Shown here: in pieces, positions 32,875 to 46,873 of the stretch | Position numbering within the stretch: the first letter of the stretch is position 1 | How the letters are laid out: each line of letters starts with the position of its first letter | NCBI GenBank assembly: GCA_029863705.1 | Contig: JAOTUU010000003.1 | Coordinates: 1,200 to 65,199 of the forward strand | DNA length: 64,000 bases | Source of the DNA: Gammaproteobacteria bacterium | GTDB taxonomy: Bacteria; Pseudomonadota; Gammaproteobacteria; Steroidobacterales; Woeseiaceae | Direction of reading: 5' to 3' | Translations under genes and position numbers: made by a program | The notes under the pieces: generated by a model | Told to the model about the DNA's origin: nothing | What the model saw: only the letters and a program-made list of their open reading frames with translations | Databases searched by the model: none

Positions 32875-32948
32875 GAGTTTTGATTTCGAGGCCCGCGGTG
32901 GCGCGCCCGGCTTGTGGCAAAGGACGCATTATACCAAACTGCCGAATC

Positions 32949-34106
32949 ATGAAAGCGCTCATGCCGGCCTTATTTGTACTTCTCCTTGCCCTGCCCTCAT
33001 TCGCCCAGGAATCAGGCGGTGAACTGGCGAAGATCAAGGAGCGAGAGCTCGAGCAGGTTCGCGACAAGATCAGTGACCTTAAAAAGAGCATGGACCGGAG
33101 CGCCTCTGACAGGGACCGGCTAACGGCCGACTTGCAGGAAGCGGAGGTCGAGATTTCCGAGAAGCGAATCCGGCTCAAAGAGCTGCAGCGCGAGCGTGAT
33201 TTCAGTGCCCGGCGCAAGGCGGAGCTTGACGCACAGCTTGCACGGCGTGAAGCAGAACTCGACGAGGAATCCAGCGAGCTTGCGACGCAGGTACGCGCAG
33301 CCTATATGAGCGGCTCCCAGGAGAAAATCAAGCTGCTGCTAAACCAGCGCGATCCGGCGACGATTGGGCGCCTCATGGCCTACTACGGTTATCTGAGCGA
33401 GTACCGTTCTGAAAATATCGAGGTCGTTACAGCAGCCATTCGTGACCTGGCGCAGCTGCGCAGCCAGGTTGCCGCTGAAGAAGCGCGAATAGCTCAGCTG
33501 GCCAAGGCTCGCTACGATGAGCTTTCGAAGCTCGGCGTGGCCCAGGACAAACGAAAAGCCCTGCTTGCAAGCCTCAAGGAGAGGATCTCGGGCCAAGGTC
33601 GTGAAGTCGAACGCTTGGCCGCGCAGGAGAAAGACCTGTCGAGGCTGATTGCCGAGCTGACAAGCATTCTCTCCGATTATCCGATTAGCTCAGAAGCGCC
33701 ATTCACCACGCACAAGGGTCGGCTGACCTGGCCGGTAGCCGGAACGCTGGCCCATGATTTCGGGCAGCCTCGAGTCGCGGGTCAGTTGAAATGGAACGGT
33801 GTGGTGCTTGCGGCGCCAAGGGGCAAAGAGGTCCGCTCCGTGTATCACGGTCGTGTCGAATTTGCCGACTGGCTCGCCGGCTTGGGCCTGCTGGTCATCG
33901 TCAACCACGGCGAGGGTTACATGACCCTGTACGGCTACAACGAGACGATTCTCAAGAATACAGGTGACTGGGTCGCGCCTGGCGACGTCATCGCAACAGT
34001 CGGTGATAGTGGCGGCCAGGCTCAGCCTGGGCTGTATTTCGAGATCCGCAAAGGCACCCAGCCAATCAATCCGCGCCAGTGGATAACGCGTCGGCCAGGG
34101 CAGTGA
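32949..34106 (+). CDS. envC: murein hydrolase activator EnvC-like (coiled coil plus degenerate M23/LytM domain)
   Basis: Start at ATG 32949 (MKALMPALFVLLLALPSFAQE is a signal peptide). Long coiled-coil segments are followed by a C-terminal LytM domain (GRVEFADWLAGLGLLVIVNHGEGYMTLYGYN, GLYFEIR). Synteny is yibN-envC-ctpA-yibQ. Confidence 0.8.
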   Translation: MKALMPALFVLLLALPSFAQESGGELAKIKERELEQVRDKISDLKKSMDRSASDRDRLTADLQEAEVEISEKRIRLKELQRERDFSARRKAELDAQLARREAELDEESSELATQVRAAYMSGSQEKIKLLLNQRDPATIGRLMAYYGYLSEYRSENIEVVTAAIRDLAQLRSQVAAEEARIAQLAKARYDELSKLGVAQDKRKALLASLKERISGQGREVERLAAQEKDLSRLIAELTSILSDYPISSEAPFTTHKGRLTWPVAGTLAHDFGQPRVAGQLKWNGVVLAAPRGKEVRSVYHGRVEFADWLAGLGLLVIVNHGEGYMTLYGYNETILKNTGDWVAPGDVIATVGDSGGQAQPGLYFEIRKGTQPINPRQWITRRPGQ

Positions 34107-34202
34107 AAACGTGACAGGCGCATGGTGTCGCTGTCTCGGCCTATGTTATCGTCGGTGATCCTGCTCGAACAATGGTCACTAGCAGGGCGCCAGGAGAAGA
34201 GT

Positions 34203-35420
34203 ATGTCATTGAAAACCAGAGCGATTCTGGTTTTAGTCATCGGTACCGTGATGGGTCTGAGCCTGTCTTTTGGCGGTGGCTTTCTGGCGCAGCAGCGACC
34301 CGCCGAGGAAGGCCTCGCCTGGGACAAGGCGCGCCTGTTCGCCGAGGTCGTGGAGCGGGTCAAGCAGGACTATCTCGAGCCCGTTGACGACAGCGCGCTA
34401 CTTGAGGCCGCCATCCGCGGCATGGTCAGCGATCTTGATCCGCACTCACAATACCTCGATGCCGATGAATATCGAGACATCCGCATCGGCACAACCGGCA
34501 GCTATACCGGCATCGGCATTGAAATCACGGAGCTCGATGGCGCCGTGCGCATCATCACGCCAATCGCGGGCTCACCGGCGGCGAGATCAGGGCTGCGCAG
34601 CGGTGATCAGGTAATTGCCGTCGATGGTACAGCTGTAGAAGCAAATAACCTTCAGGAAGTTATCGGCAGTATGCGCGGCAAGGCCGGGTCAAAAATCAGC
34701 ATTACCGTGGCACGCAACGATGACGCTATTGTTTACGAAATGCGACGAGAGGTCATTCGCGTCGCCAGCGTGCACCATGAAGTGCTGAACCCGTCGTACG
34801 GTTACGTGCGGGTCAATCAGTTTAGCGAAACAACAGCGCGGGAATTGAGCCGGGCTATCGACGAACTACAGGATAGCAAGGGCGGTATGCTCGAAGGCCT
34901 TGTGCTGGATTTGCGCAACAATCCCGGCGGTGTGCTGGATGCCGCTGTCGATGTCTCTGACCTTTTTCTCGATTCCGGCGTCATTGTGACGGCGCAAGGT
35001 CGCACAGCGGACTCGCGTTTCACGCGCTCGGCACACCGCGGTGACGTGCTCGACGGCGCCGACATAATCGTACTCGTTAACAAGGGCTCTGCATCTGCTT
35101 CCGAAATCGTCGCTGGCGCGCTGCAAGATCATGGTCGTGCGGCCGTGCTGGGCACCGACACTTTCGGCAAGGGGCTTGTGCAAACGGTTATGCCGTTGTC
35201 CAGGGGGCGCGCTATCAAGCTAACGACCTCACGCTACTTCACACCATCGGGTGATTCGATTCACAAAACGGGCATCACGCCGGATGTTTTCGTCGAAGAC
35301 ACGCCAGGCTTTCCCGACCTGAGTCTGACGGGCACGATCGATCGTGAGAAGGATGCGCAATTGGTCGCGGCAGTGGAGCGGCTGCAGCATCGCCAGGTAA
35401 TGCATAGCAAAGCGAAATGA
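34203..35420 (+). CDS. ctpA: S41 carboxy-terminal processing protease
   Basis: Start at ATG 34203 after the AGGAGAAGAG RBS. PDZ region (GIGIEITELDGAVRIITPIAGSPAARSGLRSGDQVIAVDG) and S41 catalytic region (LVLDLRNNPGG, VLVNKGSASASEIVAGALQD, GKGLVQT). Confidence 0.9.
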   Translation: MSLKTRAILVLVIGTVMGLSLSFGGGFLAQQRPAEEGLAWDKARLFAEVVERVKQDYLEPVDDSALLEAAIRGMVSDLDPHSQYLDADEYRDIRIGTTGSYTGIGIEITELDGAVRIITPIAGSPAARSGLRSGDQVIAVDGTAVEANNLQEVIGSMRGKAGSKISITVARNDDAIVYEMRREVIRVASVHHEVLNPSYGYVRVNQFSETTARELSRAIDELQDSKGGMLEGLVLDLRNNPGGVLDAAVDVSDLFLDSGVIVTAQGRTADSRFTRSAHRGDVLDGADIIVLVNKGSASASEIVAGALQDHGRAAVLGTDTFGKGLVQTVMPLSRGRAIKLTTSRYFTPSGDSIHKTGITPDVFVEDTPGFPDLSLTGTIDREKDAQLVAAVERLQHRQVMHSKAK

Positions 35421-36172
35421 GCCGCTGCCGATTCCTGCTCGCGACGATCATCATGTCGCTTACGGCGCACAGTGCGGCGTACTCGCCATCCCGAATAGCC
35501 ATCATAATCGACGACCTGGGCTACCAGCTTGCTGCCGGGCGACGCGCAATAGACATTCCCGGCCCGTTGGCTTTCGCCGTGCTTCCGGGAACCCCAAAAG
35601 GTGAATTGCTCGCGAGGATCGCGCACAGCCATGGCAAAGAGGTCCTGTTGCACTTGCCACTCGAGCCGGTCGAGTACAGTGGCCCGGCAGAGCCCGACGG
35701 TATTCTGCTGGACATGAGTCGTGAGCTGTTTCGGAGCACATTCGCAGACGCAATAGACTCGGTGCCGTTTGCGATTGGCGTTAGCAGCCACCGCGGCAGC
35801 CTTCTGACACGACACCCAGGTCATATGGAGTGGTTGATGGAGGAGATACTTGAGCGCGACAACCTGTTTTTCATAGACAGTTACACGACGCACCATAGCG
35901 TCGCGTTAAAGGTCGCCGCCGAAGCCGGGGTTGCGGCAACGAAGCGGGATGTGTTTCTGGACCATGACCCTTCCGCCGCCGCCGTGTCGCGGGAATTCGA
36001 GCGCCTGAAATCGCTGGCGCGCAAGAATGGCCACGCGGTTGGTATCGGTCACCTCAATCCAGCAACACTCGACTACCTTGAGCGGGAGCTTCCTACCCTT
36101 GAAAGTAAGGGCTTTGAGTTGGTATCGATTAGCCAGCTGTTGTCGTCACAGCAGTACGGAAGTGAAACCTGA
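35417..36172 (+). CDS. divergent polysaccharide deacetylase family protein (YibQ-like)
   Basis: 251-aa ORF with a signal peptide, then RIAIIIDDLGYQ, FAVLPGTP, LLHLPLEP and GVSSHRGS motifs typical of YibQ/DUF610. ATGA overlap with ctpA. Confidence 0.8.
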   Translation: MSRCRFLLATIIMSLTAHSAAYSPSRIAIIIDDLGYQLAAGRRAIDIPGPLAFAVLPGTPKGELLARIAHSHGKEVLLHLPLEPVEYSGPAEPDGILLDMSRELFRSTFADAIDSVPFAIGVSSHRGSLLTRHPGHMEWLMEEILERDNLFFIDSYTTHHSVALKVAAEAGVAATKRDVFLDHDPSAAAVSREFERLKSLARKNGHAVGIGHLNPATLDYLERELPTLESKGFELVSISQLLSSQQYGSET

Positions 36173-36789
36173 TGGGCTGGTACGACGACCGGATACTGCC
36201 AAAACTTGTCGACCTCAGCTGTGGCACAAAGCCAATCCACAAGCAACGCGAGAAGGTCGTGCCGCTGGCCGCCGGTGATGTTCTGGAAATCGGTTTCGGC
36301 GGTGGGCTAAACCTGCCCTACTATGATCGCGATCAGGTGAGAAAAGTCTGGGGTCTTGAGCCGTCTGCGGGAATGCGCAAGCGAGCCAGAAAGCGGATCG
36401 CAACAACGGACATCGACGTTGAGCTAATCGATCTGCCCGGCGAGGAAATTCCGCTGCCCGACAATAGTGTCGACACCGTCCTGGTGACTTACACGCTTTG
36501 TACGATTGCTGATGTTTCTGCCGCACTGGCAGGCATGCGCCGAGTGCTCAAGCCAGATGGACGACTGTTGTTCACTGAACACGGGCGAGCACCTGATGCG
36601 GGTGTGCGTCGTTGGCAAGATAGGTTAAACCCCGGCTGGAAAAAGCTGGCCGGCGGCTGCAATATGAATCGGGACATTGCGGGGACAATAGAGGGCGCAG
36701 GCTTTTCGCTTGCTGAGGACAATCGAATGTACATTCCGGGCATTCGCATCCTGAGCTACCACTATTGGGGAACTGCGAGGCCACGCTAG
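36172..36789 (+). CDS. class I SAM-dependent methyltransferase (Methyltransf_11-like)
   Basis: VLEIGFGGGLNLPYY is motif I, and VLKPDGRLLFTEH is the post-II/III region. The start overlaps the yibQ-like stop (TGATG). Confidence 0.75.
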   Translation: MGWYDDRILPKLVDLSCGTKPIHKQREKVVPLAAGDVLEIGFGGGLNLPYYDRDQVRKVWGLEPSAGMRKRARKRIATTDIDVELIDLPGEEIPLPDNSVDTVLVTYTLCTIADVSAALAGMRRVLKPDGRLLFTEHGRAPDAGVRRWQDRLNPGWKKLAGGCNMNRDIAGTIEGAGFSLAEDNRMYIPGIRILSYHYWGTARPR

Positions 36790-36801
36790 GTCAAATCGAA
36801 C

Positions 36802-37608
36802 ATGACGATTAATAATATGAAGGTACTGGTCCCGATTCTGATAACGATGCTTGCAGCATCATCCGCGAGCATGGCACAGGAAGGTGAAACTGCCTGCACC
36901 ATGCAATACGAACCCGTTTGCGGTGTGGACGGGCAGACCTATAGCAACGAGTGCGTTGCAGGCGCCGGTGGCGTAGAAATTGCGAGTCAGGGCATGTGCC
37001 AGACTGGCGAGTCCGGCTGCAGCGAGGCCTTCGACCCGGTCTGCGGCGTGGACGGCAATACCTATGTTAACGAGTGTTTTGCAGAAGCCTCCAACGTACA
37101 AGTTGCTGGCTTAGGCGCTTGCACGGCAAACGGCTGCCCAAGCACTGGAGATCCGGTCTGCGGCATGAATGGGCGCACATATTTGAACCGCTGCGACGCC
37201 GATGCCGAGCGTGTACCGGTGCAACGCAAGGGTCTGTGCGATGTGCAAAATTGCCCGAAAGTATTCTCGCCCGTCTGCGGCGATGACGGCGAGACCTATG
37301 AGAATGCGTGCAACGCCGAGAAAGCTGGAGTAACGACTTTCACTGTGGGCATCTGCAACGTACGCGCCTGTCCGGCGTTATTCATTCCGGTGTGTGGGTC
37401 GGATCGACTTACCTACAGTAACGCGTGTCAGGCAGAGAGGCGGGGAGTGCGCATTGATTACGCTGGCATGTGTGAGGGCCAGGGTCGCAATTGCCCGCGC
37501 GACTACGCACCGGTATGTGGCCTCGACGGCGTCACCTATGACAATGAATGCCAGTTGGGCAATGCCAACATCGATAAAGCCTATGCAGGGGCGTGCCTCG
37601 GCGACTAA
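36802..37608 (+). CDS. secreted protein with six tandem Kazal-like serine protease inhibitor domains
   Basis: Signal peptide (MTINNMKVLVPILITMLAASSASMAQE) followed by six ~41-aa repeats of the form C-x7-C(PVCG)-xDGxTYxNxC-x14-C. An example is CTMQYEPVCGVDGQTYSNECVAGAGGVEIASQGMC. The PVCG..TY.N.C core is the Kazal signature. Confidence 0.8.
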   Translation: MTINNMKVLVPILITMLAASSASMAQEGETACTMQYEPVCGVDGQTYSNECVAGAGGVEIASQGMCQTGESGCSEAFDPVCGVDGNTYVNECFAEASNVQVAGLGACTANGCPSTGDPVCGMNGRTYLNRCDADAERVPVQRKGLCDVQNCPKVFSPVCGDDGETYENACNAEKAGVTTFTVGICNVRACPALFIPVCGSDRLTYSNACQAERRGVRIDYAGMCEGQGRNCPRDYAPVCGLDGVTYDNECQLGNANIDKAYAGACLGD

Positions 37609-37613
37609 GGCAG

Positions 37614-40010
37614 CTACCAGGCGGGTCGGAGACGGCCGTTCTCGTCGGCCTGATATGGCATCCAGGCAAGTCCGATCAGCGGCACATGGATATCTGTACT
37701 CTTCGCGCGAATGATGACCTCATCCAACTCTTCGGCCTGAGCGTCGAAAGAGGTGTCCAGTGTCTCGACTTCTTTAACCAGCTCCTGGTTCAGCGCTTCG
37801 ATGTCCGCCTTTACCTTGGCTGCGGTTTCCTCGGCGCGCTTAATGTCCGCAGACTCCTTGCGCGCACCACTGGCAGTCTTTATCGCCGAGCCAATACGTG
37901 TGGCGGATGAGGTCGAGACGCGTTTGCGGCCAAGAACCGCGCCGAGGATAGCGGTGCCAAATGATACGGCTGTGTCGAGTTTCTTTTTGGTCGCTTGTTG
38001 TTTTTCACGATCTATAGATTGATGCGCACGCAACAGGCGATTCTCCAGCGTGGTGACTTTGCTCGCGTAGCGCTTACGAATCTTGGCAACGGCCTGATCG
38101 CGCTTTTCGTTTGCGACGGTCTGCAGGCGCGCGCGAAAATCCCCTTCCGCTTCACCCGATTCCGAAGACAGCTTGAAGCGCTTGCTGCGATACAGTGAAA
38201 TCGTCTCGTTTTGCCGCAACCAGCGTTTGAAGTCCCTGTTCCACGCTGTGTAGTTCTTCGCTACAGAAGCACAAGCGGGACACTCTACGTACGTCGCATC
38301 TTCCTCGCCACGATCTTCAAGGTCGTCGATGTTGATTTCAACGGCGTCACTATTGTCCCAATCGACGTTGACGGGGCCATCCTCGAACTCCACCGTGTAA
38401 ACACAGGCGCGCTCGCCTTCGATTTTATTGCGTACGCTGTTGTAGGTGATTTCAGCCGCAGCGATGAGCCGCGGGTGATACACAACGCCCTCGCCCATAC
38501 CCGGTACGAAATACTGTTCAACGGATGGCGGCAACGTGGGCGCTATGGACTCGCTACGTCGCTTGGGCTTGCTTACTGTGCGCACCGCGGCCGCGCCCGT
38601 CGCTTTGATTTTCGACATCAGGGCCTTGATGCTGTCGCGCGTCAACGGCCCGGCAAGATACGACAAGACCCAGCGCGTGTTGAACACGACGGCCTCGTTT
38701 TCATGCACATTGTGTAACAGAAAGCGGCGTTTGCCGAGCCCGGCGAGCGTTCGCTCCATTTTTTGTTTGTTGAAATTTCCGTCACTCGCGCCTTCGAGTC
38801 CTTCCATGACCCGCGCTTTGTCACGCTCGGTTTGCAGTCGGCCGATAAACCAAGTGCCGGTATTGGAAAGCCCCTTGTAGTCGAGGTCGACGGGGTTTTG
38901 CGTCGCGAGCACCAGCCCCAGCCCGTAAGCGCGCGCCTGTTTGAGCAAGGTCAAAAACAGTCTCTTGGACGGCGGGTTTGCAACCGGCGGCATGTAGCCA
39001 AAGATCTCGTCCATGTAGAGAATTGCGCGCAGGCTCGACGTGCCCTGCTGTGCTCGCATCCAGCTGATTAGCTCGTTGAGTAACATCGAAACGAAGAACA
39101 TGCGCTGCGCATCATCGAGGTGCGCGATTGACATTACTGAAATTCGCGGCTTGCCCTCGACAGTGTAGAGAAGGCTCTTCGCGTTGAGCGGCTCACCCTG
39201 CATCCAGGCCTCAAAACCAGGCGCCGCCAGCAGGTTGTTCAGGCGCATCGCCAGCGCGAAGCGATCCTTTGCGGGGAAGAAGGAGTCGAGCGTCATGACG
39301 CCGACTTTCGTTATCGGTGGATCCTGAATTTCGGCTATCAGGCTCGCGACATCGAGGCCTCGGCCTTCGCGCCAGGAGTGATCCAGCAATCGCGAAATCA
39401 GAATGTGTTCGCGACTCGATACGGGATCGGCGTCGATACCGAGTAAGGTCAGGATGCCGGTGGCGGTAGCCTGGACCCGCTCACGGTAGAGATCAGCGTC
39501 ATCAATGAGCGCCGCATCCGGGGCAGCAAAGGACTGCAGCACAGAAATCGGCAGCCCGGCGTTGCTGCCGGGCGTGTAGATTGCCATGTCGACGTTTTTG
39601 CGTAACTGGCCAATACGTGCGCCGGTCTGGCCCCACTGCCCGAGCCCCTTTTTCCACAACGCAGCCTGGCCTGCGGCGAACTCGTCTGGCGTTTGGCCGT
39701 TGTCCGTCGCGCTACGAGCATTAACCCAGGGTCGAAAGTCCTCCGCGCGCAGCTGCGGGAACGTGAGCATGATGTTGCCCATGTCCCCTTTCGGGTCGAT
39801 GGCGATGACCGGGATGTGGTCAAGCGCGGCTTCCTCGAGAATGCCAATACCAAGCCCGGTTTTCCCCGACCCCGTCATGCCGATGATGACAGCGTGCGTT
39901 GTCAGATCTTTCGCATCGTACAAGACCAACTCTTCGGTGAGGTTGTCTGCCTCCGTGTCGAAACGTTTACCGAGGTAGAACGCACCAAGTTTTTCAAAAT
40001 CGTTCATCAA
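37614..40010 (-). CDS. HerA/FtsK-superfamily P-loop ATPase (DUF853/YjgR-like N-terminal half) with long C-terminal coiled-coil extension
   Basis: 798-aa ORF. Walker A is AVIIGMTGSGKTGLGIGILEEA followed by PVIAIDPKGD, Walker B is AILYMDEIFGY, and LVLATQNPVDLDYKGLSNTGTWFIGRLQ resembles the HerA-like/YjgR sensor region. The C-terminal ~250 aa are charged and coiled-coil-like. Confidence 0.6.
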   Translation of the reverse strand: MMNDFEKLGAFYLGKRFDTEADNLTEELVLYDAKDLTTHAVIIGMTGSGKTGLGIGILEEAALDHIPVIAIDPKGDMGNIMLTFPQLRAEDFRPWVNARSATDNGQTPDEFAAGQAALWKKGLGQWGQTGARIGQLRKNVDMAIYTPGSNAGLPISVLQSFAAPDAALIDDADLYRERVQATATGILTLLGIDADPVSSREHILISRLLDHSWREGRGLDVASLIAEIQDPPITKVGVMTLDSFFPAKDRFALAMRLNNLLAAPGFEAWMQGEPLNAKSLLYTVEGKPRISVMSIAHLDDAQRMFFVSMLLNELISWMRAQQGTSSLRAILYMDEIFGYMPPVANPPSKRLFLTLLKQARAYGLGLVLATQNPVDLDYKGLSNTGTWFIGRLQTERDKARVMEGLEGASDGNFNKQKMERTLAGLGKRRFLLHNVHENEAVVFNTRWVLSYLAGPLTRDSIKALMSKIKATGAAAVRTVSKPKRRSESIAPTLPPSVEQYFVPGMGEGVVYHPRLIAAAEITYNSVRNKIEGERACVYTVEFEDGPVNVDWDNSDAVEINIDDLEDRGEEDATYVECPACASVAKNYTAWNRDFKRWLRQNETISLYRSKRFKLSSESGEAEGDFRARLQTVANEKRDQAVAKIRKRYASKVTTLENRLLRAHQSIDREKQQATKKKLDTAVSFGTAILGAVLGRKRVSTSSATRIGSAIKTASGARKESADIKRAEETAAKVKADIEALNQELVKEVETLDTSFDAQAEELDEVIIRAKSTDIHVPLIGLAWMPYQADENGRLRPAW

Positions 40011-40022
40011 ACCACCCCTGAC

Positions 40023-41564
40023 TTATGGGTAGGTGTAACTTGCCTGGATGCCTAGCGGCAAGCCAATCGCAAAGTACAGTAGCAGGAAGATCGTCCACGT
40101 GAGCAGAAACCACATCGAATAGGGCAGCATCATTGCGGTAACGGTGCCGATGCCGGTGCTTTTCACATAGCGCTGACAGTAAACCACGACCAGCGGGAAG
40201 TACGGCATTAACGGCGTGATGATGTTGGTGCTTGAGTCGCCGACACGATACGCGGCCTGCGTGAGGTCCGGCGAAATGCCAAGCGACATCAGCATGGGGA
40301 CGAAGATGGGTGCGAGCAGCCCCCACTTGCCACTTGCCGAGCCGACGAAAATGTTGACGAATGCGGTCAGCAATACGATGCCGACGATTGTGAATGCGGC
40401 CGGTAGTGCCAATGAAGCCAGGCCAGCAGCACCCTCTACCGCAAGCAGGACGCCCAGGTTCGACACGTTGAACGCGTAAACAAACTGGGCAATGAAAAAC
40501 ATGATGACGAGGTAGTAGGCCATGCTATGCATGGCGTGGGTCATGCCGTCAATCATGTCCTTGGCGCTTTTCATCGAGCCCGAAACAACGCCAAACACGA
40601 GGCCCGGCACAAGAAACAACAGGAAGATAAGCGACACGATGGAGCGCATCATCGGTGCGGCGCCACTGGTCAGTTCACCGCTTCCCGGAGCGCGCCAGGC
40701 CGAACCTTCTGGCAGGGCCGTCGCAAACAAGAGGACAACACCAACAACCATGGAGACCAGCGCCCAGCGCAGGCCTTTACGCTCGTTGGGCTTGATGTCG
40801 TGAACCTCGGGTAAGTCTTCGGCATCGCCGTCAATTTCCAGGCCCTGCAAGCGTGGCTCGACGACCTTCTCGGTCAAGTACCAGCCGAGGCCTACGATCA
40901 GCACCGAGGAGGCGGTTGTGAAGAAGTAATTGTTCAGCGGGTTTACGAGAACACTCGGATCGAGGATCTGTGCGCCCGCCTGTGTCAGTCCCTGCAACAG
41001 CGGATCGAGCGACGACGGCACGAAGTTCGCCGAGAAACCGCCGGAAACGCCGGCAAATGCGGCGGCAATACCGGCAAGTGGATGCCGACCGGCGGCATAG
41101 AAAATAACACCGCCCAGCGGAATAACCAGTACGTATCCAGCATCAACCGCGGAGTGGCTGACGATGCCGACGAGAATGACCATCGGCGTTAGCAACCATT
41201 TAGCGGTCACATTCAACAAGGCGCGAATGCCGGTTGTTATAAAGCCGGTGTGCTCCGCGACTCCGATGCCGAGCATCGCGACGAGCACAACGCCGACCGG
41301 ATGAAAGTGCGAAAAGTTGGTGACCATGACCGAGAGAAATTCGGTGAATGCCCGGCCAGACAGCAGGTTGTTAATGACGATCGGCTGGCTCGTGCGCGGA
41401 TCGATGGCGGTGATGGAGACGTAGGACATCAGCCACGATAAAATCCAGACCGCAAACAGCAGCACGATAAACAGCACCGCTGGGTCCGGCAGTTTATTGC
41501 CGATGCGCTCAACCGATGCGAGCATGCGCGCGCCAAGGCTGGCCTTTAATTGTTTTTTTGACAT
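40023..41564 (-). CDS. abgT: AbgT-family transporter (p-aminobenzoyl-glutamate / dipeptide-type)
   Basis: 513-aa polytopic ORF with the characteristic AbgT N-terminus (LASVERIGNKLPDPAVLFIVLLFAVWILSW) and a matching length. Confidence 0.8.
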   Translation of the reverse strand: MSKKQLKASLGARMLASVERIGNKLPDPAVLFIVLLFAVWILSWLMSYVSITAIDPRTSQPIVINNLLSGRAFTEFLSVMVTNFSHFHPVGVVLVAMLGIGVAEHTGFITTGIRALLNVTAKWLLTPMVILVGIVSHSAVDAGYVLVIPLGGVIFYAAGRHPLAGIAAAFAGVSGGFSANFVPSSLDPLLQGLTQAGAQILDPSVLVNPLNNYFFTTASSVLIVGLGWYLTEKVVEPRLQGLEIDGDAEDLPEVHDIKPNERKGLRWALVSMVVGVVLLFATALPEGSAWRAPGSGELTSGAAPMMRSIVSLIFLLFLVPGLVFGVVSGSMKSAKDMIDGMTHAMHSMAYYLVIMFFIAQFVYAFNVSNLGVLLAVEGAAGLASLALPAAFTIVGIVLLTAFVNIFVGSASGKWGLLAPIFVPMLMSLGISPDLTQAAYRVGDSSTNIITPLMPYFPLVVVYCQRYVKSTGIGTVTAMMLPYSMWFLLTWTIFLLLYFAIGLPLGIQASYTYP

Positions 41565-41622
41565 GGGACGATCCCCGCTTTTTTTGTTTTGCAGAGTCTA
41601 CGCAATCCGGTCAGCCACGTCG

Positions 41623-43443
41623 CTACCAGCCGCAGCTACGGCCTTCGTTTTGTTCCTGCAGATAGCCCATCAGTGGCTTGAAATAGTCGATGATCGCCGT
41701 GGCATCCATTTCCCGCGTTCCTGTCAGCTTCTCCAGCGTGTCGGGCCAGGGGTCACTGGCGCCGGCTTCGAGCATAGCGGTCAAACGCTCGCCTGCTGCC
41801 TTGCTGCCATAAATCGAACAGGCATGCAGATCGCCCTCGTGGCCCGCTGTTTCGCACAGCGCCCGCTGGAACTGGAACTGCAGAATATGCGCGAGGAAAT
41901 ACCGGGTGTACGAGACGTTTGCGGGCACATGATATTTTGCGCCCGGATCGAAGTCGGCCTCGCTGCGCTCAACTGGTGCCGCGATGCCCTGGTACTTCGT
42001 GCGCAAATCCCACCAACTCTTGTTGTAATCCGCGGGCGCGATCTCGCCAGAGAAAACGGCCCAGCGCCATTCGTCGATGAGCTTGCCGAATGGCAGGAAG
42101 GCTATTTTGTCCAAAGCCTGCTGCATCTGCCGATTAATAATTGCCTGTTCGTTTTGTTCGGCCGATGCAATCAGGCCGACCTCGGCAAGATAGCCGGGTG
42201 TCATCGACAGCGTTATGGTGTCGCCGATGGCTTCGTGAAAGCCGCTGTTCGCGCCGCCCTGGAACAGCGGCGGCTGATCTTTGTACGCACCCTGGTAATA
42301 GTTATGCCCAAGCTCATGATAGATCACGCGCAATTCATCGTAGGTTTGTTTGATGCACATTTTGATGCGCAGGTCGTTGCCACCGTCAAGGCCCCACGCA
42401 CTCGCATGGCAGACGACTTCGCGATCTGCCGGCTTGGAAAACATGGAGCGCTCCCAGAACGTATCTGGCATTCGTGGCATACCGAGCGAGGTGTAGAAAC
42501 TCTCAGCCGAGCGAACCATCTCCTGTGGTGAATAGTTCTTGGTTTTGAGGGTCGTGTCGACGTCGATTTCCGCGACGCCGGGGTACGGCTCAATCAGATC
42601 GTAAATAAAACCCCACCCCTGCGCCCACATATTGCCAAGCAGGTGCGCCGGAATAGGCTGGTCTTGTGGAACCTTGTCCTCGCCGTAAACTTCGCCGAGT
42701 TTTGCTCGCACATGACAATGCAATTCGTCGTATAACGGTTCGACTTGTTCCCAAAGACGGCCCGCTTCAGCTTGAAACTCGGTCGGGCTCATGTCGAAAC
42801 CGGCGCGCCACATCTCACCCAGGTTGGCATAGCCAAGGTCATTCGCGCCTTCGTTAGCGAGCTCTACATAGCGCTCGTACATTGCACGCATCGGCGGTGC
42901 AATTGTGCGCCACCCCTCCCACAACTCAAGCAACTCATCGTAATCTCGCAACTCAGTCATGAGACCCTCGAGCTCTGTGCCCGAGATACAATCGCCGTCA
43001 CTGCGGCAGTACTTGCCGGCGCCGTACATGCCTTTGAGTTCGGTGGCTATTTGCATCAGCTCACGGCGCTTGGCAGCATCATTCGGTGCCGGCAACGACG
43101 TGCCGAGCTTCAGCAGGTCTATCCCACGCCGTGTGTCAGCGCCCAGTTTCTGGCCATCGTACTTCGCCGCCTCGGCGACCGTGCGGCTGTGCCACTCGGC
43201 ATATCGTTCACTGGCCGCGGCGTTCAGTATCGCCGTGTCCTCGGTGATATAGGTTGCGCGTACCCAACCGGCGGCGCCCTGATCGATGCGGAGCGCCTTG
43301 AGCTCCTCATTGACTCGAGCGATGAACGCTTCGGCGGACTCTTCCGGTGCTGAACTAACAGCTTCCTCTGGGGCCTGCTGAGAACACGCAGCAAAACCCG
43401 TTGCGACCAACAGACCCGCAATCAGTGTCAAATAATTTTTCAT
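41623..43443 (-). CDS. M2-family peptidyl-dipeptidase (angiotensin-converting-enzyme-like), lipoprotein
   Basis: Lipobox signal MKNYLTLIAGLLVATGFAACS. Zinc site is HELGHNYY ... FHEAIGD (HExxH plus a downstream E, as in ACE), with the ACE-like segment VCHASAWG. 606 aa, the size of a single ACE domain. Confidence 0.8.
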   Translation of the reverse strand: MKNYLTLIAGLLVATGFAACSQQAPEEAVSSAPEESAEAFIARVNEELKALRIDQGAAGWVRATYITEDTAILNAAASERYAEWHSRTVAEAAKYDGQKLGADTRRGIDLLKLGTSLPAPNDAAKRRELMQIATELKGMYGAGKYCRSDGDCISGTELEGLMTELRDYDELLELWEGWRTIAPPMRAMYERYVELANEGANDLGYANLGEMWRAGFDMSPTEFQAEAGRLWEQVEPLYDELHCHVRAKLGEVYGEDKVPQDQPIPAHLLGNMWAQGWGFIYDLIEPYPGVAEIDVDTTLKTKNYSPQEMVRSAESFYTSLGMPRMPDTFWERSMFSKPADREVVCHASAWGLDGGNDLRIKMCIKQTYDELRVIYHELGHNYYQGAYKDQPPLFQGGANSGFHEAIGDTITLSMTPGYLAEVGLIASAEQNEQAIINRQMQQALDKIAFLPFGKLIDEWRWAVFSGEIAPADYNKSWWDLRTKYQGIAAPVERSEADFDPGAKYHVPANVSYTRYFLAHILQFQFQRALCETAGHEGDLHACSIYGSKAAGERLTAMLEAGASDPWPDTLEKLTGTREMDATAIIDYFKPLMGYLQEQNEGRSCGW

Positions 43444-43468
43444 TGTGCTTCCTGCTTTGTTAATTGGA

Positions 43469-45280
43469 TCAATGCACGCCGTGCATGCCGCGTCTCAGAA
43501 GCGGAGAAACGAGCAGAACGAACACACCTACTCCAAGGCCGACATACATCAGGAACTCAAACAGCTGTGTATACGTCGCCAGAGCGCCAACGGAATCTAC
43601 GACCTCACCACCGTGGGTGTCGACTGCCGCCATTTTGCCGAGACGTGTCGCGACAGTTTCTGAAAGCGCGGTCGCCAGGAACCACGTTCCCATGCTTACC
43701 CCGACAACCCGGCCAATCGACAGCTTGGTCACGGCAGACAGGCCGACCGGCGACAAGCACAGCTCACCCGTTGTGTGCAGCAGGTAAGCGAGAACCAGCC
43801 AGATCATGCCGACCTTGCCCGCTGCGTCCGGGAACTGCGCACCAAAAACGAGGGCGCCGAAACCAAGGCCCGCCTGGATAATGCCAAGGCCAAATTTTAC
43901 CGGGGTCGGCGGCTCGAGATTGCGTTTTGCCAGCCAGATCCAGAGCCACGCGAACGGCAGGGCAAGCAGAAAGATGAAGCCCGCGTTCAGTGAACCGAAT
44001 TGCGCGGCCGTAACCGTTACGCCACCGATTTCGCGATCGACAACGCGATCTGCGAACAAGGTCATCGAGCCGGCGGACTGTTCGAACAGCGCCCAGAAAA
44101 CCACAGTTGTCAGGATCAGGAACATGAGCACGACGGTGCGGCCAAGCTCATCGGAGTTGTGCGTCTTGAAGCCGTACACCACAAAGGCCACGATCAACGC
44201 AATCGCCGCGTAAACGGTGTATTCGACGACCATTTCGCTGCCGGGCAAGAAGCCGAGGTTAGCGGCGGCCGAATAAGAACCGAGAATTATCGCTGCGGCC
44301 GCAAAAATATAAGCAAAGGTGTTGCTGCCTGCGGCTTTTCTATAAATCATCGAATACAAAATGATGCCCACTACGGCCGAGATCAGGAACACATTTTGGG
44401 TCAGGAGAACAACAGGTTCGTGTTGCACCAGCAACCAGAACACACCCAGAACCGGCAGGCTCAGGAGATAGATCGCCCACTCACGGCTGATCGGCCCGAA
44501 AACTTTTTGCTTCAGTTGCTCTGGATCCGACGGCTCGGCATGGCCGTGGAGAAATTTCTGCCCGTAGGTAAAGGAGATCAGTCCGATGATCATGCCGATA
44601 CCGGCCGCGCCGAAGCCATACTTCCAGCCAAAGGTCTCACCAAGCCAGCCGCAAAGCAGAGTGGCGGTGAACGAACCGATGTTGATACCCATGTAAAAGA
44701 TCGTGAAACCCGAATCACGACGCGGGTCATCTTTGCTATAGAGCCTGCCAACGATCGTTGAAATGTTCGGCTTCAGGTAGCCGACGCCCATGACGATAAG
44801 CGCCAGCGCAAAATAGAAGACGTTGAGGGCGGCCGTGTCCCGGAAGGTCAGGGCCTCTGACAACATCGTGCCTGCGACCAATATCTCGCCGCTGGCAAGC
44901 GTCAGGCTTTCTGTGAGCACGGTTCCGGCAGGGTAGTTGATGGCTTTGAAGCCCTCAACAGCCATTAGCAAATGACCAAGTGACAGCAGGATGCCGCCAA
45001 ACAGGACGGACTTGCGCATGCCGAGATAGCGGTCTGCTATCAGGCCGCCGATTACCGGCAGCGCATAGACGAGGCCGGCGTACGAGCCGAGCACGTCCAG
45101 ACCGTCGCCGTCGGAAAACAGGTGATACTTGGTGAGATACAGAAGCAGCAGGTATTTCATTCCGTAGAATGAAAAGCGCTCCCAAAGCTCGGTCGTGAAA
45201 CAAACGTAAAGGCCTTTCGGGTGACCCCAAAGGTCGTCATTACTTTGCTCGTCCACTGCCGTGGCAACCAAGTCAGTCAT
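43469..45280 (-). CDS. POT/PTR2-family di/tripeptide:proton symporter
   Basis: PTR2 signatures are present: ELWERFSFYGMKYLLLLYL, GGLIADRYLGMRK and FTIFYMGINIGSF. 603 aa with about 14+ TM helices. Confidence 0.9.
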   Translation of the reverse strand: MTDLVATAVDEQSNDDLWGHPKGLYVCFTTELWERFSFYGMKYLLLLYLTKYHLFSDGDGLDVLGSYAGLVYALPVIGGLIADRYLGMRKSVLFGGILLSLGHLLMAVEGFKAINYPAGTVLTESLTLASGEILVAGTMLSEALTFRDTAALNVFYFALALIVMGVGYLKPNISTIVGRLYSKDDPRRDSGFTIFYMGINIGSFTATLLCGWLGETFGWKYGFGAAGIGMIIGLISFTYGQKFLHGHAEPSDPEQLKQKVFGPISREWAIYLLSLPVLGVFWLLVQHEPVVLLTQNVFLISAVVGIILYSMIYRKAAGSNTFAYIFAAAAIILGSYSAAANLGFLPGSEMVVEYTVYAAIALIVAFVVYGFKTHNSDELGRTVVLMFLILTTVVFWALFEQSAGSMTLFADRVVDREIGGVTVTAAQFGSLNAGFIFLLALPFAWLWIWLAKRNLEPPTPVKFGLGIIQAGLGFGALVFGAQFPDAAGKVGMIWLVLAYLLHTTGELCLSPVGLSAVTKLSIGRVVGVSMGTWFLATALSETVATRLGKMAAVDTHGGEVVDSVGALATYTQLFEFLMYVGLGVGVFVLLVSPLLRRGMHGVH

Positions 45281-45370
45281 ATTTTCCCCCGAACATTAAC
45301 TGGTGCTGCAGAAAGCTCGCAGCGTGGGCTAGGCATTAAACACTATTTGAGGCGTAACTTTCTACCGTCG

Positions 45371-45413
45371 GCGCGGCCTATGGCCGCGATCACGCCCACA
45401 GGGCGCTCCTACA
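45371..45413. repeat. REP-like palindromic element, second copy (reverse orientation)
   Basis: The reverse complement reads TGTAGGAGCGCCCTGTGGGCGTGATCGCGGCCATAGGCCGCGC. This matches the 24935-24960 unit (TGTAGGAGCGCCCCGCGGGCGCGATC) at 23 of 26 positions and contains two short GC hairpins. It overlaps the tatC stop codon. Confidence 0.45.
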
Positions 45414-46182
45414 GTTCGGTTTCTCGCGTTGGTTCAGCTTCAGCGGGTTTCCCGGCAAATATGCGCGACATGATAATGCCGCATTCATAAAGCAGGTAGA
45501 CCGGAACAGCGAGCAAGGTCTGGCTGATGATGTCGGGAGGCGTCAGGAACATGCCGACGACGAATGCGCCCAGAAACACATACGGCCGTGCTTTGCTGAG
45601 CTTGTCAATATCGGTGAGACCAGTCCAGACAAGTAGAACGGTTGCCACAGGCACTTCAAACGCGAGGCCGAATGCGAGCACGATCATCGTGATGAAGCTC
45701 AGGAAGTGCGAGATGTCGGTCATGACTTCTACGCCCTCGGGCGCCACCGCGGTAAAGAAACCGAACATCAGTGGAAAGACGACGAAGTAGGCGAATGCAA
45801 TGCCGAGATAGAAAAGCAGAATGCTGCTTGCCAGCAACGGAAACGCAAAATGTTTTTCCTTCCTGTACAGCCCTGGCGCGACAAATGCCCATACCTGATA
45901 CAAAATCACCGGCATCGCAATGAAGAGCGAAACAAAAAAGGTCAGCTTGAAGGGCGTTAGCAATGGTGACGCAACCTCGGTCGCGATCATCTGCTGGCCC
46001 GGTAAAATTTCGCGAAGCGGCTCAGACACAAGAGAGAAAATTCGCCGCGCGAACGGTAGCAGCGCGATGAAAACCAAAACGACAGCGGCCGCAATCTTCA
46101 GAAGCCGGCCACGCAACTCAATGAGGTGCGACAACAAGGTCCCCTCTGCAAGGTCTTCGCCGTTGTCGGACTCTTTACTCAC
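45409..46182 (-). CDS. tatC: twin-arginine translocase subunit TatC
   Basis: 257-aa six-[27 protein letters not shown] and [22 protein letters not shown] are typical TatC sequences. Synteny is tatA-tatB-tatC. Confidence 0.95.
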
Positions 46183-46526
46183 GCGTTTTTCTTTTCTTCG
46201 TCATCGACCGGTTCCGGGTCGGGTGCTGCATCGACCTCCGGTTCGGTATCATCCTCGGTCTTCGCTGCCTTTGTCGGATCGTGCAACGGCGAATAGGTGT
46301 CGTCGTCATTCGGTGCTGGCGCTGAAGCTCGCGGCTCAATGCTCAGCGGGTTACCGCCGAGATCGAGCTCTTCCTCTAGTTGCCGCCTCATAACCCGCGT
46401 CATGCGCCTGGCTTGTCCAAGCCATGTGCCGAGCTGGTTCGCAACGCGCGGCAGTCTCTCGGGCCCAAGTACGATGAGCCCGATCATAAATAGAATAAGG
46501 AGTTCCGAAAAGCCGATCCCGGACAT
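46179..46526 (-). CDS. tatB: twin-arginine translocase subunit TatB
   Basis: [33 protein letters not shown] is the canonical TatB N-terminus. The C-terminal tail is acidic. Confidence 0.9.
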
Positions 46527-46537
46527 ATCAGAACGAC

Positions 46538-46771
46538 TCAGGATTTGTTGTCGTGGGTCTCGTCAACCGGCGTATTGTCAAAGTCAGCGTCCTTGTCCGA
46601 TGACTCCGAAAGTTGCTCGGTCGTGGCTTCGGCGTCACTTACTGCCGAGCGAAATCCCTTTACAGCGCTGCCGAGATCGGAGCCCAGCGTGCGCAAACGT
46701 TTCGTGCCAAAAATGGCGAGCACGATGACAAGCACGATCAGCAATTGAACCGGGCCGATGTTGGATAACAT
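46538..46771 (-). CDS. tatA: twin-arginine translocase subunit TatA
   Basis: 77 aa. [33 protein letters not shown] is the TM plus amphipathic-helix signature. Confidence 0.9.
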
Positions 46772-46873
46772 CTTATTACTCCTGGGGCCTCGCCCCGTAA
46801 TGATTCTGCGTGGTTAATAATAGCGCCAAAGACGGCACAATACCGTGTCGGCGTCACACCGCAATACCTCTGA

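Follow-up and report, generated by a model that had tools for sequence, protein, structure and literature searches.

The window considered here, a stretch of 64,000 nucleotides from a marine-sediment member of the Woeseiaceae (Gammaproteobacteria; contig JAOTUU010000003.1), contains a gene for a Kazal-type protein that lies directly behind a co-oriented run beginning with envC, ctpA and yibQ (Table 1). The 24 cysteines of this protein fall into six sets of four, with spacings of 7, 10 and 14 residues within each set and short linkers of 4-6 residues (6, 4, 4, 4 and 6 in order) joining one set to the next, and the chain ends three residues past the last cysteine. The original prediction, made from the DNA of the window, had described six C-x7-C-x10-C-x14-C units between nucleotides 36895 and 37596, and this pattern is exact in all six units of the open reading frame translation, with 39-41 residues between the start of one unit and the start of the next. 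The shared core that had been proposed, PVCG-xDGxTY-xNxC, is likewise exact in units 1, 2, 4 and 6, while in unit 3 (PVCGMNGRTYLNRC) and unit 5 (PVCGSDRLTYSNAC) it is one residue off. The predicted P1 residues, which are located two positions past the first cysteine of each unit, read Met, Glu, Ser, Lys, Ala and Arg from unit 1 to unit 6, as had been stated. The units are 37-54% identical to one another as protein and 41-65% as DNA, so that the repeat is visible at the protein level only, and no DNA tandem repeat was found in the gene by Tandem Repeats Finder (TRF); the six units are old duplicates. The mature protein is small, acidic (32 Asp and Glu residues against 15 Lys and Arg) and disulfide-rich by its cysteine content, and an exact-sequence cluster look-up returned no entry and no annotation for it.

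Table 1. The Kazal gene, its predicted parts and its neighbours, in coordinates of the window.
Feature	Nucleotides	Strand	Residues	Remarks
Six-unit Kazal protein, coding sequence	36802..37608	+	268 in all	Open reading frame list; ATG start, TAA stop
Predicted Sec (SPase I) signal peptide	36802..36876	+	1-25	MTINNMKVLVPILITMLAASSASMA, followed by QE at the predicted cleavage site
Kazal unit 1	36895..36999	+	32-66	Loop C-T-M-Q-Y-E; predicted P1 Met34 (36901-36903)
Kazal unit 2	37018..37122	+	73-107	Loop C-S-E-A-F-D; predicted P1 Glu75 (37024-37026)
Kazal unit 3	37135..37239	+	112-146	Loop C-P-S-T-G-D; predicted P1 Ser114 (37141-37143)
Kazal unit 4	37252..37356	+	151-185	Loop C-P-K-V-F-S; predicted P1 Lys153 (37258-37260)
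Kazal unit 5	37369..37473	+	190-224	Loop C-P-A-L-F-I; predicted P1 Ala192 (37375-37377)
Kazal unit 6	37492..37596	+	231-265	Loop C-P-R-D-Y-A; predicted P1 Arg233 (37498-37500)
envC-like M23 murein-hydrolase activator gene, first of the co-oriented run	32880..34106	+		Pfam Peptidase_M23
ctpA, S41 C-terminal processing peptidase with PDZ	34122..35420	+		Pfam Peptidase_S41 and PDZ
yibQ-type divergent polysaccharide deacetylase gene	35417..36172	+		Pfam Polysacc_deac_2, E=1.9e-69
Class I S-adenosylmethionine (SAM) methyltransferase gene	36172..36789	+		Pfam Methyltransf_11
Spacer of 12 nt, methyltransferase stop to Kazal start	36790..36801	+		From the sequence
HerA-like ATPase gene	37614..40010	-	798 in all	Weak DUF87/HerA-like Walker matches
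Region of the peptide-scavenging set	about 40023-46800	-		Placed by offset from L001 gene calls
AbgT transporter gene	40023-41564	-		Part of the peptide-scavenging set
Peptidase_M2 gene	about 41623-43443	-		Angiotensin-converting enzyme (ACE)-like dipeptidyl carboxypeptidase
PTR2/POT transporter gene	about 43469-45280	-		Followed by tatC, tatB and tatA

Both family and fold agree with what had been proposed. In a scan against Pfam, the protein is matched by Kazal_1 at E=5.9e-51 (170.7 bits, cut-off 21) and by Kazal_2 at E=5e-39 (132.6 bits, cut-off 22.8), each in six stretches, the best Kazal_1 stretch being the region of unit 6 at residues 225-265; chance cannot account for a pattern of this strength. 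Its sequence matches in the Protein Data Bank (PDB) are all Kazal inhibitors or Kazal-like modules, namely ovomucoid, agrin, CrSPI-1, LDTI, SPINK1 and GmSPI-2. An AlphaFold2 model, built on an alignment of 65 sequences, predicts a hairpin-helix-strand fold (E-E-H-E) six times over, with a mean predicted local distance difference test score (pLDDT) of 85.5 and values of about 85-95 within units; the mutual placement of the units is not defined in this model, since its predicted template modelling score (pTM) is only 0.44. When a single predicted unit was compared with the PDB by Foldseek, it was found to fit LDTI (1an1_I; template modelling score, TM, 0.89), GmSPI-2 (4hgu; TM 0.85) and domain 1 of CrSPI-1 (3pis; TM 0.74-0.77), the rmsd (root mean square deviation) being 0.6 Å in each case, while the top matches of the whole chain are follistatin-type tandem arrays at TM 0.14-0.19, which reflect tandem repetition only. 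By hidden Markov model (HMM), PDB matches and predicted fold, the protein belongs to the Kazal family (PF00050/PF07648; MEROPS I1).

A classical Kazal domain has six cysteines that are paired 1-5, 2-4 and 3-6. The units of the window protein are not classical in this sense, because each has four cysteines, the first cysteine of ovomucoid is aligned to a residue other than cysteine, and no cysteine follows C4 within the helix. It had been suggested that they retain C2, C3, C4 and C6 and are without the C1-C5 pair, and this is borne out by an ungapped alignment of residues 31-66 to residues 4-39 of GmSPI-2, in which the GmSPI-2 disulfides Cys5-Cys24 and Cys13-Cys39 land exactly on the four cysteines of unit 1. 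Unit 1 is likewise aligned to LDTI with no gap. GmSPI-2 (Galleria mellonella silk protease inhibitor 2; PDB 4hgu, 2m5x) is a domain of 36 residues with four cysteines and disulfides 5-24 and 13-39, which has been shown to be highly active against subtilisin and proteinase K (PMC4169406). It has the same C-x7-C-x10-C-x14-C arrangement as the units described here but is a single insect domain, secreted in silk, for which inhibition has been proven, as opposed to six chained units with a predicted activity. A second protein of this kind is CrSPI-1, whose domain 1 has the disulfides Cys1-Cys19 and Cys8-Cys35 and has been crystallised in the active site of subtilisin with P3=Cys1, P2=Pro2, P1=His3 and P2'=Tyr5 (PMC3082530). 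CrSPI-1 is matched by phmmer at E 2.5e-9, with 55-57% identity over the aligned unit and a domain 1 cysteine spacing of x7/x10/x15 in the aligned construct. It resembles the window protein in that its domain 1 has only the equivalents of C2-C4 and C3-C6 and in that it is multi-headed, each head binding its own protease; it differs in being an animal immune protein with two heads, the second of which has three disulfides, and in the roughly 10 residues that lead from domain 1 to the reactive loop of domain 2, as against 4-6 in the window protein. Since Cys1 occupies P3 and His3 occupies P1 in this crystal structure, the assignment of P1 to the second residue past the first cysteine is validated for the window protein as well.

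Judged by their cysteine spacing, the units appear to represent the two-disulfide Kazal subtype without C1-C5 (the GmSPI-2/CrSPI-1 domain 1 type), and by homology to these solved structures each unit probably pairs its first cysteine with the third and its second with the fourth. The four-cysteine form is thus not new, having already been solved in GmSPI-2 and CrSPI-1 domain 1. The two-disulfide domains of LEKTI, EPI1a and ShSPI, which are better known and have been termed 'atypical', are of a different kind in that they are without C3-C6 and not without C1-C5.

The N-terminus of the protein resembles a Sec leader with n-, h- and c-regions, in line with the signal peptide that had been predicted: Lys7 is followed by a hydrophobic core at residues 8-18 (11 residues; Kyte-Doolittle window up to 2.75), and S-M-A stands before Gln26. 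There is no lipobox cysteine in the leader, and all orthologs begin with a comparable signal-like segment. In many of these orthologs (L045, L051, L057, L076, L078, L079, L086, L005 and others), a spacer of 20-40 residues with the recurring motif (G)DVDLQS(I/L)F...(L)AQ lies between the signal peptide and unit 1; this spacer, which may be a propeptide or a sorting element, is absent from the window protein.

Conservation of the protein was followed in orthologs that were collected with the CtpA sequence of the window, one genome per species, the best 80 loci (69-94% CtpA identity) all being from metagenome-assembled genomes (MAGs) and nearly all being labelled Woeseiaceae; the closest is 94% identical. 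Residue counts per site, which are given below without repeating the sample, were taken from 71 full-length orthologs. Essentially all of them have 24 cysteines and six units, and invariant or nearly so are all of these cysteines, the Pro-Val before the second cysteine of each unit and the Asn of TYxNxC. This Asn is the P15' residue, which in the third domain of ovomucoid props the reactive loop. Laskowski-type hallmarks of the loop, that is, a P3 Cys, Pro-Val-Cys and the TYxNxC Asn, are found in six of the six units of the window protein. At P2 it has Thr (unit 1), Ser (unit 2) or Pro (units 3-6), and the orthologs share these residues except in unit 2, whose P2 varies between Pro, Ser and Gly. 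At P2' an aromatic residue, Tyr or Phe, stands in every unit but unit 3, which has Gly, and across the orthologs P2' is again aromatic in five units out of six.

The P1 residues are also largely stable by unit. The most conserved of the six is that of unit 2 (E63 D5), and a single residue predominates in unit 6 (R54 N6 P3), unit 3 (S48 G14 A4) and unit 1 (M46 Q7 T6 E4 A4). Unit 4 (K33 R10 Q8 P5 E4 and others; 2.56 bits) and unit 5 (N25 R16 S13 T5 A3; 2.54 bits) are those in which P1 and P18' are among the most variable sites, P18' Asn171 being the most variable position of unit 4 (3.06 bits) and P1 the second most variable site of unit 5. In unit 3, hardly any change is seen along the segment GMNGRTY.NRCEA...RVPVQR. 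Variability is on average higher at the consensus Kazal contact positions, among which the P6-P4 linker residues are counted, than elsewhere (1.21 vs 0.79 bits; permutation p=0.002), and the core loop contacts (P2-P3', P14', P18') average 1.15 vs 0.79 bits. Pairwise ratios of non-synonymous to synonymous change (dN/dS) are 0.04-0.13, with synonymous sites saturated between most species, and the gene as a whole is under purifying selection. Positive selection at the reactive sites was considered and rejected, as a parsimony count resembling single-likelihood ancestor counting (SLAC) found no site with an excess of non-synonymous change; omega at P1 is 0.14-0.50 vs 0.18 for the gene as a whole, and the contact positions are relaxed only in relative terms. 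While the diversified P1 set of the original prediction does hold between the units of one protein, within a given unit the residue is fairly stable across species and is not rapidly diversifying. The comparison of sequences thus points to heads whose six specificities are distinct and for the most part fixed, two of them being somewhat relaxed, and not to an arms race.

Six heads are not an absolute rule, as Woeseiaceae-type orthologs with seven and eight four-cysteine units (28 and 32 cysteines) were seen on the metagenome contigs L136 and L158, beside yibQ/ctpA. Truncated homologues such as P0008, P0010 and P0019, which could be taken for recurrent frameshifts at 'NCPK', were treated as assembly errors and not as pseudogenes; for at least P0010 and P0019 this is because neighbouring genes are also fragmented in their assemblies (L005, L006), where tatC, abgT, herA and envC are split into fragments along with the Kazal gene.

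The genes that precede the Kazal gene were identified as had been claimed, the coordinates and family matches being in agreement on a start 12 nt past a co-oriented EnvC/CtpA/YibQ/methyltransferase run, of which envC, ctpA and yibQ all encode envelope or periplasmic functions. The best NCBIfam match of the envC-like gene is EnvC at 201.6 bits, under the equivalog cut-off of 270, and ctpA matches TIGR00225 at 324 bits (cut-off 218.6), with gene callers placing its start at the equivalent of 34203. A terminator scan found no terminator-like site from the one inside yibQ (36096-36111) to the Kazal start codon. By tblastn, the Kazal gene is found directly after envC-ctpA-yibQ, with or without the methyltransferase gene in between, in 74 of 74 informative Woeseiaceae genomes, informative meaning that the contig reaches far enough; the six apparent absences among the 80 loci are all cut at a contig end, and the link to envC-ctpA-yibQ that had been proposed is real. 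The same arrangement is present in a more distant Woeseiaceae MAG (58% CtpA identity), and an identical protein and neighbourhood were found on five independent metagenome contigs.

Three local arrangements occur among the relatives, namely ctpA-yibQ-methyltransferase-Kazal, ctpA-yibQ-Kazal and ctpA-Kazal, the last in L059 and L070, where yibQ is missing. The methyltransferase gene is a variable insert: the upstream gap was scored in 70 full-length relatives, and in 16 of these it is the methyltransferase gene that comes before the Kazal gene. The median gap is 32 nt where the preceding gene is yibQ and 50 nt where it is the methyltransferase gene, and overlaps of -1 or -4 are frequent. Downstream neighbours (HerA-like ATPase, AbgT) vary. 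With a shared strand, a 12-nt gap, no intervening terminator and conserved adjacency, the Kazal gene has an operon-like placement behind envC-ctpA-yibQ, and it may be co-transcribed with these genes.

Some further observations concern this neighbourhood. The HerA-like ATPase gene converges on the Kazal gene, with the two stop codons 5 nt apart, and lies outside the conserved module because some Woeseiaceae relatives are without it, though many have it. Beyond it, the peptide-scavenging set listed in Table 1 fits a proteolytic lifestyle of the organism. One database protein, P0004, was called as a methyltransferase-Kazal fusion, which is probably an artefact of gene calling or assembly, and two loci with typical Woeseiaceae synteny that are labelled Kofleriaceae (Myxococcota; L063) and Pelomicrobium (L048) probably come from mis-binned MAGs.

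A wider search of metagenome contigs was made because an S41 gene was seen 2-5 kb from a Kazal gene in two loci outside the Woeseiaceae (L088, L092). The contigs were scanned with a degenerate PVCGxDGxTYxNxC pattern, which gave at least 120 loci, and these were searched with three S41 queries. Eight of the loci hold Woeseiaceae-type orthologs, seven of which have yibQ, ctpA or envC alongside, while the eighth (L115) was identified from its sequence, the contig being truncated there. Among the matches listed, no S41 peptidase was found in the other loci, which number about 110 and cover 596 kb, with a length of 6 kb or more in 38 cases, and S41, yibQ and envC were seen only at Woeseiaceae-type loci, so that a general Kazal-S41 linkage was rejected and the two S41 genes of L088 and L092 are at about chance level. 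The Kazal genes of Myxococcota and Lujinxingia stand in unrelated contexts, with no adjoining S41 gene and none behind envC-ctpA-yibQ. As the Kazal genes of other prokaryotes are without S41 linkage, the CtpA link is specific to the Woeseiaceae lineage.

While bacterial Kazal domains had been described as rare and uncharacterised, only the second part of this description stands, since the scan gave at least 120 loci, most of them with prokaryote-like coding density. As early as 2005 a Kazal-like protein was pointed out in Nitrosomonas europaea, and relatives in Woeseiaceae and Myxococcota MAGs (P0029, P0031, P0062) are named 'Kazal-type serine protease inhibitor domain-containing protein' by NCBI. 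The Myxococcota and Lujinxingia proteins share the Pfam family of the window protein but differ from it in build, the former having Kazal units mixed with other cysteine-rich modules and the latter having six-cysteine units. Judging from the contigs scanned, four-cysteine units are widespread in uncultured prokaryotes. One such architecture is a single C-terminal four-cysteine unit in secreted DUF5667 proteins with a long Glu/Lys-rich helical region, which recurs on low-GC metagenome contigs (L094, L109, L121, L211; also L151, L147 and L140). Other four-cysteine units are fused to a plastocyanin/cupredoxin domain (L190, L168) or to DUF4377 and a metallo-beta-lactamase fold (L113), and reuse of Kazal modules in many extracellular proteins of prokaryotes is suggested by this. 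A second Kazal gene beside cell-wall genes was seen in a metagenome bacterium that is unrelated (L091; P0057): it has four strictly four-cysteine units and comes immediately after genes for a PDZ-domain protein and a YkuD L,D-transpeptidase, with no S41 peptidase present.

The reading that we favour, with a probability of about 0.6, is that the window protein is exported and acts, with several heads, as a canonical (Laskowski-mechanism) inhibitor of serine endopeptidases from the chymotrypsin (S1) and/or subtilisin (S8) clans, and that it would shield the cell envelope. One point in favour of an inhibitor is that GmSPI-2 and CrSPI-1 domain 1, the two solved examples of the same four-cysteine type, inhibit subtilisin-type enzymes. 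In the mechanism proposed, the Sec system would export the protein and its signal peptide of 25 residues would be removed, after which each unit of 35 residues would close its two disulfides in the oxidising periplasm (32-51 and 40-66 in the case of unit 1). These disulfides would hold a rigid reactive-site loop from P3, the first cysteine, to P3', and each loop could then dock in the active site of a protease. With P1 residues that are stable in the lineage (Met, Glu, small, Lys/Arg, variable and Arg from the first head to the last), one chain may cover trypsin-like, chymotrypsin/subtilisin-like, elastase-like and Glu-specific enzymes, since each head presents a different P1; a Kazal domain with P1 Glu, conkazal-M1, has also been reported to inhibit subtilisin. 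The Kazal gene would be transcribed with, or directly behind, a constitutive envelope operon, envC-ctpA-yibQ, so that the inhibitor would be made whenever the envelope is built. Periplasmic and envelope proteins would in this way be shielded from serine proteases, whether these come from other members of a sediment community rich in proteases or are S1/S8 enzymes of the cell itself, in transit.

Multi-headed animal Kazal inhibitors such as ovomucoid, ovoinhibitor, LEKTI/SPINK5 and dipetalogastin carry tandem heads with different P1 residues and have a broad spectrum. Inhibitors of this group appear among the sequence matches of the window protein, from which they differ in being eukaryotic and in having three-disulfide domains, classical or non-classical, and longer linkers. 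A functional analogue of the proposed periplasmic shield is ecotin (MEROPS I11) of E. coli and other Proteobacteria, a Sec-exported periplasmic protein that inhibits many S1 proteases by means of a loop resembling a substrate and so guards the cell against exogenous proteases entering the periplasm (PMC9904509). Ecotin differs from the window protein in its unrelated fold, in being a dimer with one primary loop per monomer, in having no link to envC-ctpA and in owing its breadth to a secondary binding site, where that of the window protein would come from several heads. Only Kazal families match the window protein in Pfam, and no ecotin was found among its PDB sequence or Foldseek matches. As for the organisms, Woeseiaceae rank among the most abundant bacteria of marine sediments, Woeseiales are proteolytic specialists that live on proteinaceous detritus, and all of the Woeseiales genomes examined encode S1 and S8 peptidases, with about 50 or more peptidase homologues per Mb (PMC7082342). 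The same published survey of peptidases explicitly left inhibitors out (PMC7082342).

Several points weigh against a shield of this kind. The fold alone is no proof of activity, since agrin, follistatin and SPARC have Kazal-like domains that do not act as inhibitors, and no biochemical study of any bacterial Kazal protein was found in the literature searched. With such short linkers, neighbouring heads may not bind together and the stoichiometry may be well under six. The arms-race signature of some animal Kazal inhibitors is absent, as no site in the orthologs has an excess of non-synonymous change. A search of the whole window for S1/S8 active-site motifs found no S1 or S8 gene, which leaves no candidate target linked to the inhibitor; the three G-x-S-x-G-G matches in the window were considered as a linked target protease and rejected, being gyrB, glyS and a histidine kinase. 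A clear Shine-Dalgarno sequence was not seen before the Kazal start codon, and the sequence by itself does not separate periplasmic retention from release.

This last point leads to a variant in which the protein is an active inhibitor that works outside the cell, being released via the outer membrane or vesicles and either protecting the cell surface and secreted enzymes or blunting the proteases of competitors and bacterial predators. The same evidence for an inhibitor applies to it, its closest characterised four-cysteine relatives act outside cells against microbial subtilisins (GmSPI-2 in silk and CrSPI-1 in haemolymph), and a small, acidic, disulfide-rich mature protein suits extracellular stability. 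In a diderm cell, however, a Sec leader alone leads to the periplasm by default, and no further secretion or anchoring signal (CTD, PEP-CTERM or lipobox) can be recognised in the protein, so that we consider this site of action unlikely, though more probable than the other alternatives. Rather less probable is a Kazal-like array that does not inhibit at all and serves a structural or ligand-binding role as in agrin, follistatin and SPARC, for example by binding an envelope component. The follistatin-type whole-chain matches speak for it, as do the prokaryotic four-cysteine units fused to DUF5667, cupredoxin and metallo-beta-lactamase, where the role of an inhibitor is not obvious, and the strong conservation of surfaces off the reactive loop (RVPVQR in unit 3; AERRG.RI.YAG in unit 5). 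The TM of those matches is very low, however, while single units fit true inhibitors closely, and the hallmarks of the loop (P3 Cys, Pro-Val, the P15' Asn and, in five units each, a Thr or Pro at P2 and an aromatic P2') have been kept throughout the orthologs.

The original prediction had also raised a control on CtpA-type proteolysis, for which nothing was found beyond adjacency. In this case the protein would be a dedicated regulator of the operon's own protease, with one or more heads inhibiting or docking CtpA (S41, with a Ser-Lys dyad), its substrates or some other periplasmic serine protease of the cell by which peptidoglycan hydrolases are processed, and would tune the degradation of these hydrolases. 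That the Kazal gene is kept downstream of ctpA in every informative genome, through three local arrangements and with varying downstream neighbours, is consistent with such a role, and the conserved P1 residues of unit 2 (Glu) and unit 6 (Arg) suggest fixed, possibly endogenous partners. The whole secB-rhodanese/envC-ctpA-yibQ neighbourhood is nevertheless syntenic in the family, so adjacency cannot separate function from vertical inheritance, and the link is gone outside the Woeseiaceae. The targets proven so far for Kazal inhibitors belong to clans S1 and S8 and are Ser-His-Asp enzymes, while CtpA belongs to S41 and has Ser-Lys, and we know of no canonical inhibitor of an S41 peptidase that has been described; control of CtpA is therefore very doubtful. 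If true, the C-terminal processing protease family would gain its first proteinaceous inhibitor, and a new layer of cell-wall regulation would be added in one of the most abundant families of marine-sediment bacteria. As to the origin of the gene, Kazal domains are best known from animals, oomycetes and apicomplexans, and some database matches at 30-40% identity are from fish, insects and oomycetes, which could point to a recent horizontal acquisition from a eukaryote or to eukaryotic contamination of the assembly. This is effectively refuted by the composition of the gene (GC 57.5%; GC at third codon positions, GC3, 0.64), which is inside the range of the flanking genes, by the identical gene and neighbourhood in independent assemblies, and by the fact that 74 species-level genomes, between which synonymous divergence is saturated, all carry it in the same place; the gene is also intronless and has a predicted signal peptide of bacterial type. 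For a transfer from eukaryotes, which the original prediction had wished to see checked, there is thus no compositional or distributional sign of a recent event, and the fixed position across the family, the saturated synonymous sites and the matching GC mark an old, vertically inherited core gene.

The Kazal family (MEROPS I1), the four-cysteine subtype and the multi-headed design were already known before this analysis. What is new, as far as comparison of sequences can tell, is a universally conserved six-headed array, made up entirely of four-cysteine units and fixed behind envC-ctpA-yibQ, in an abundant bacterial family, together with predicted head specificities that are stable across species and the wide occurrence of four-cysteine units in uncultured prokaryotes. 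Biochemical work on bacterial Kazal inhibitors could begin with the window protein, which would be tractable, and a small, modular scaffold, probably stabilised by disulfides, with six natural specificities on a minimal 35 residues could interest protein engineers. For the Woeseiaceae themselves, a predicted inhibitor that is strictly conserved and embedded in an operon-like setting would indicate that control of envelope proteolysis is a core need of a lifestyle based on detrital protein.

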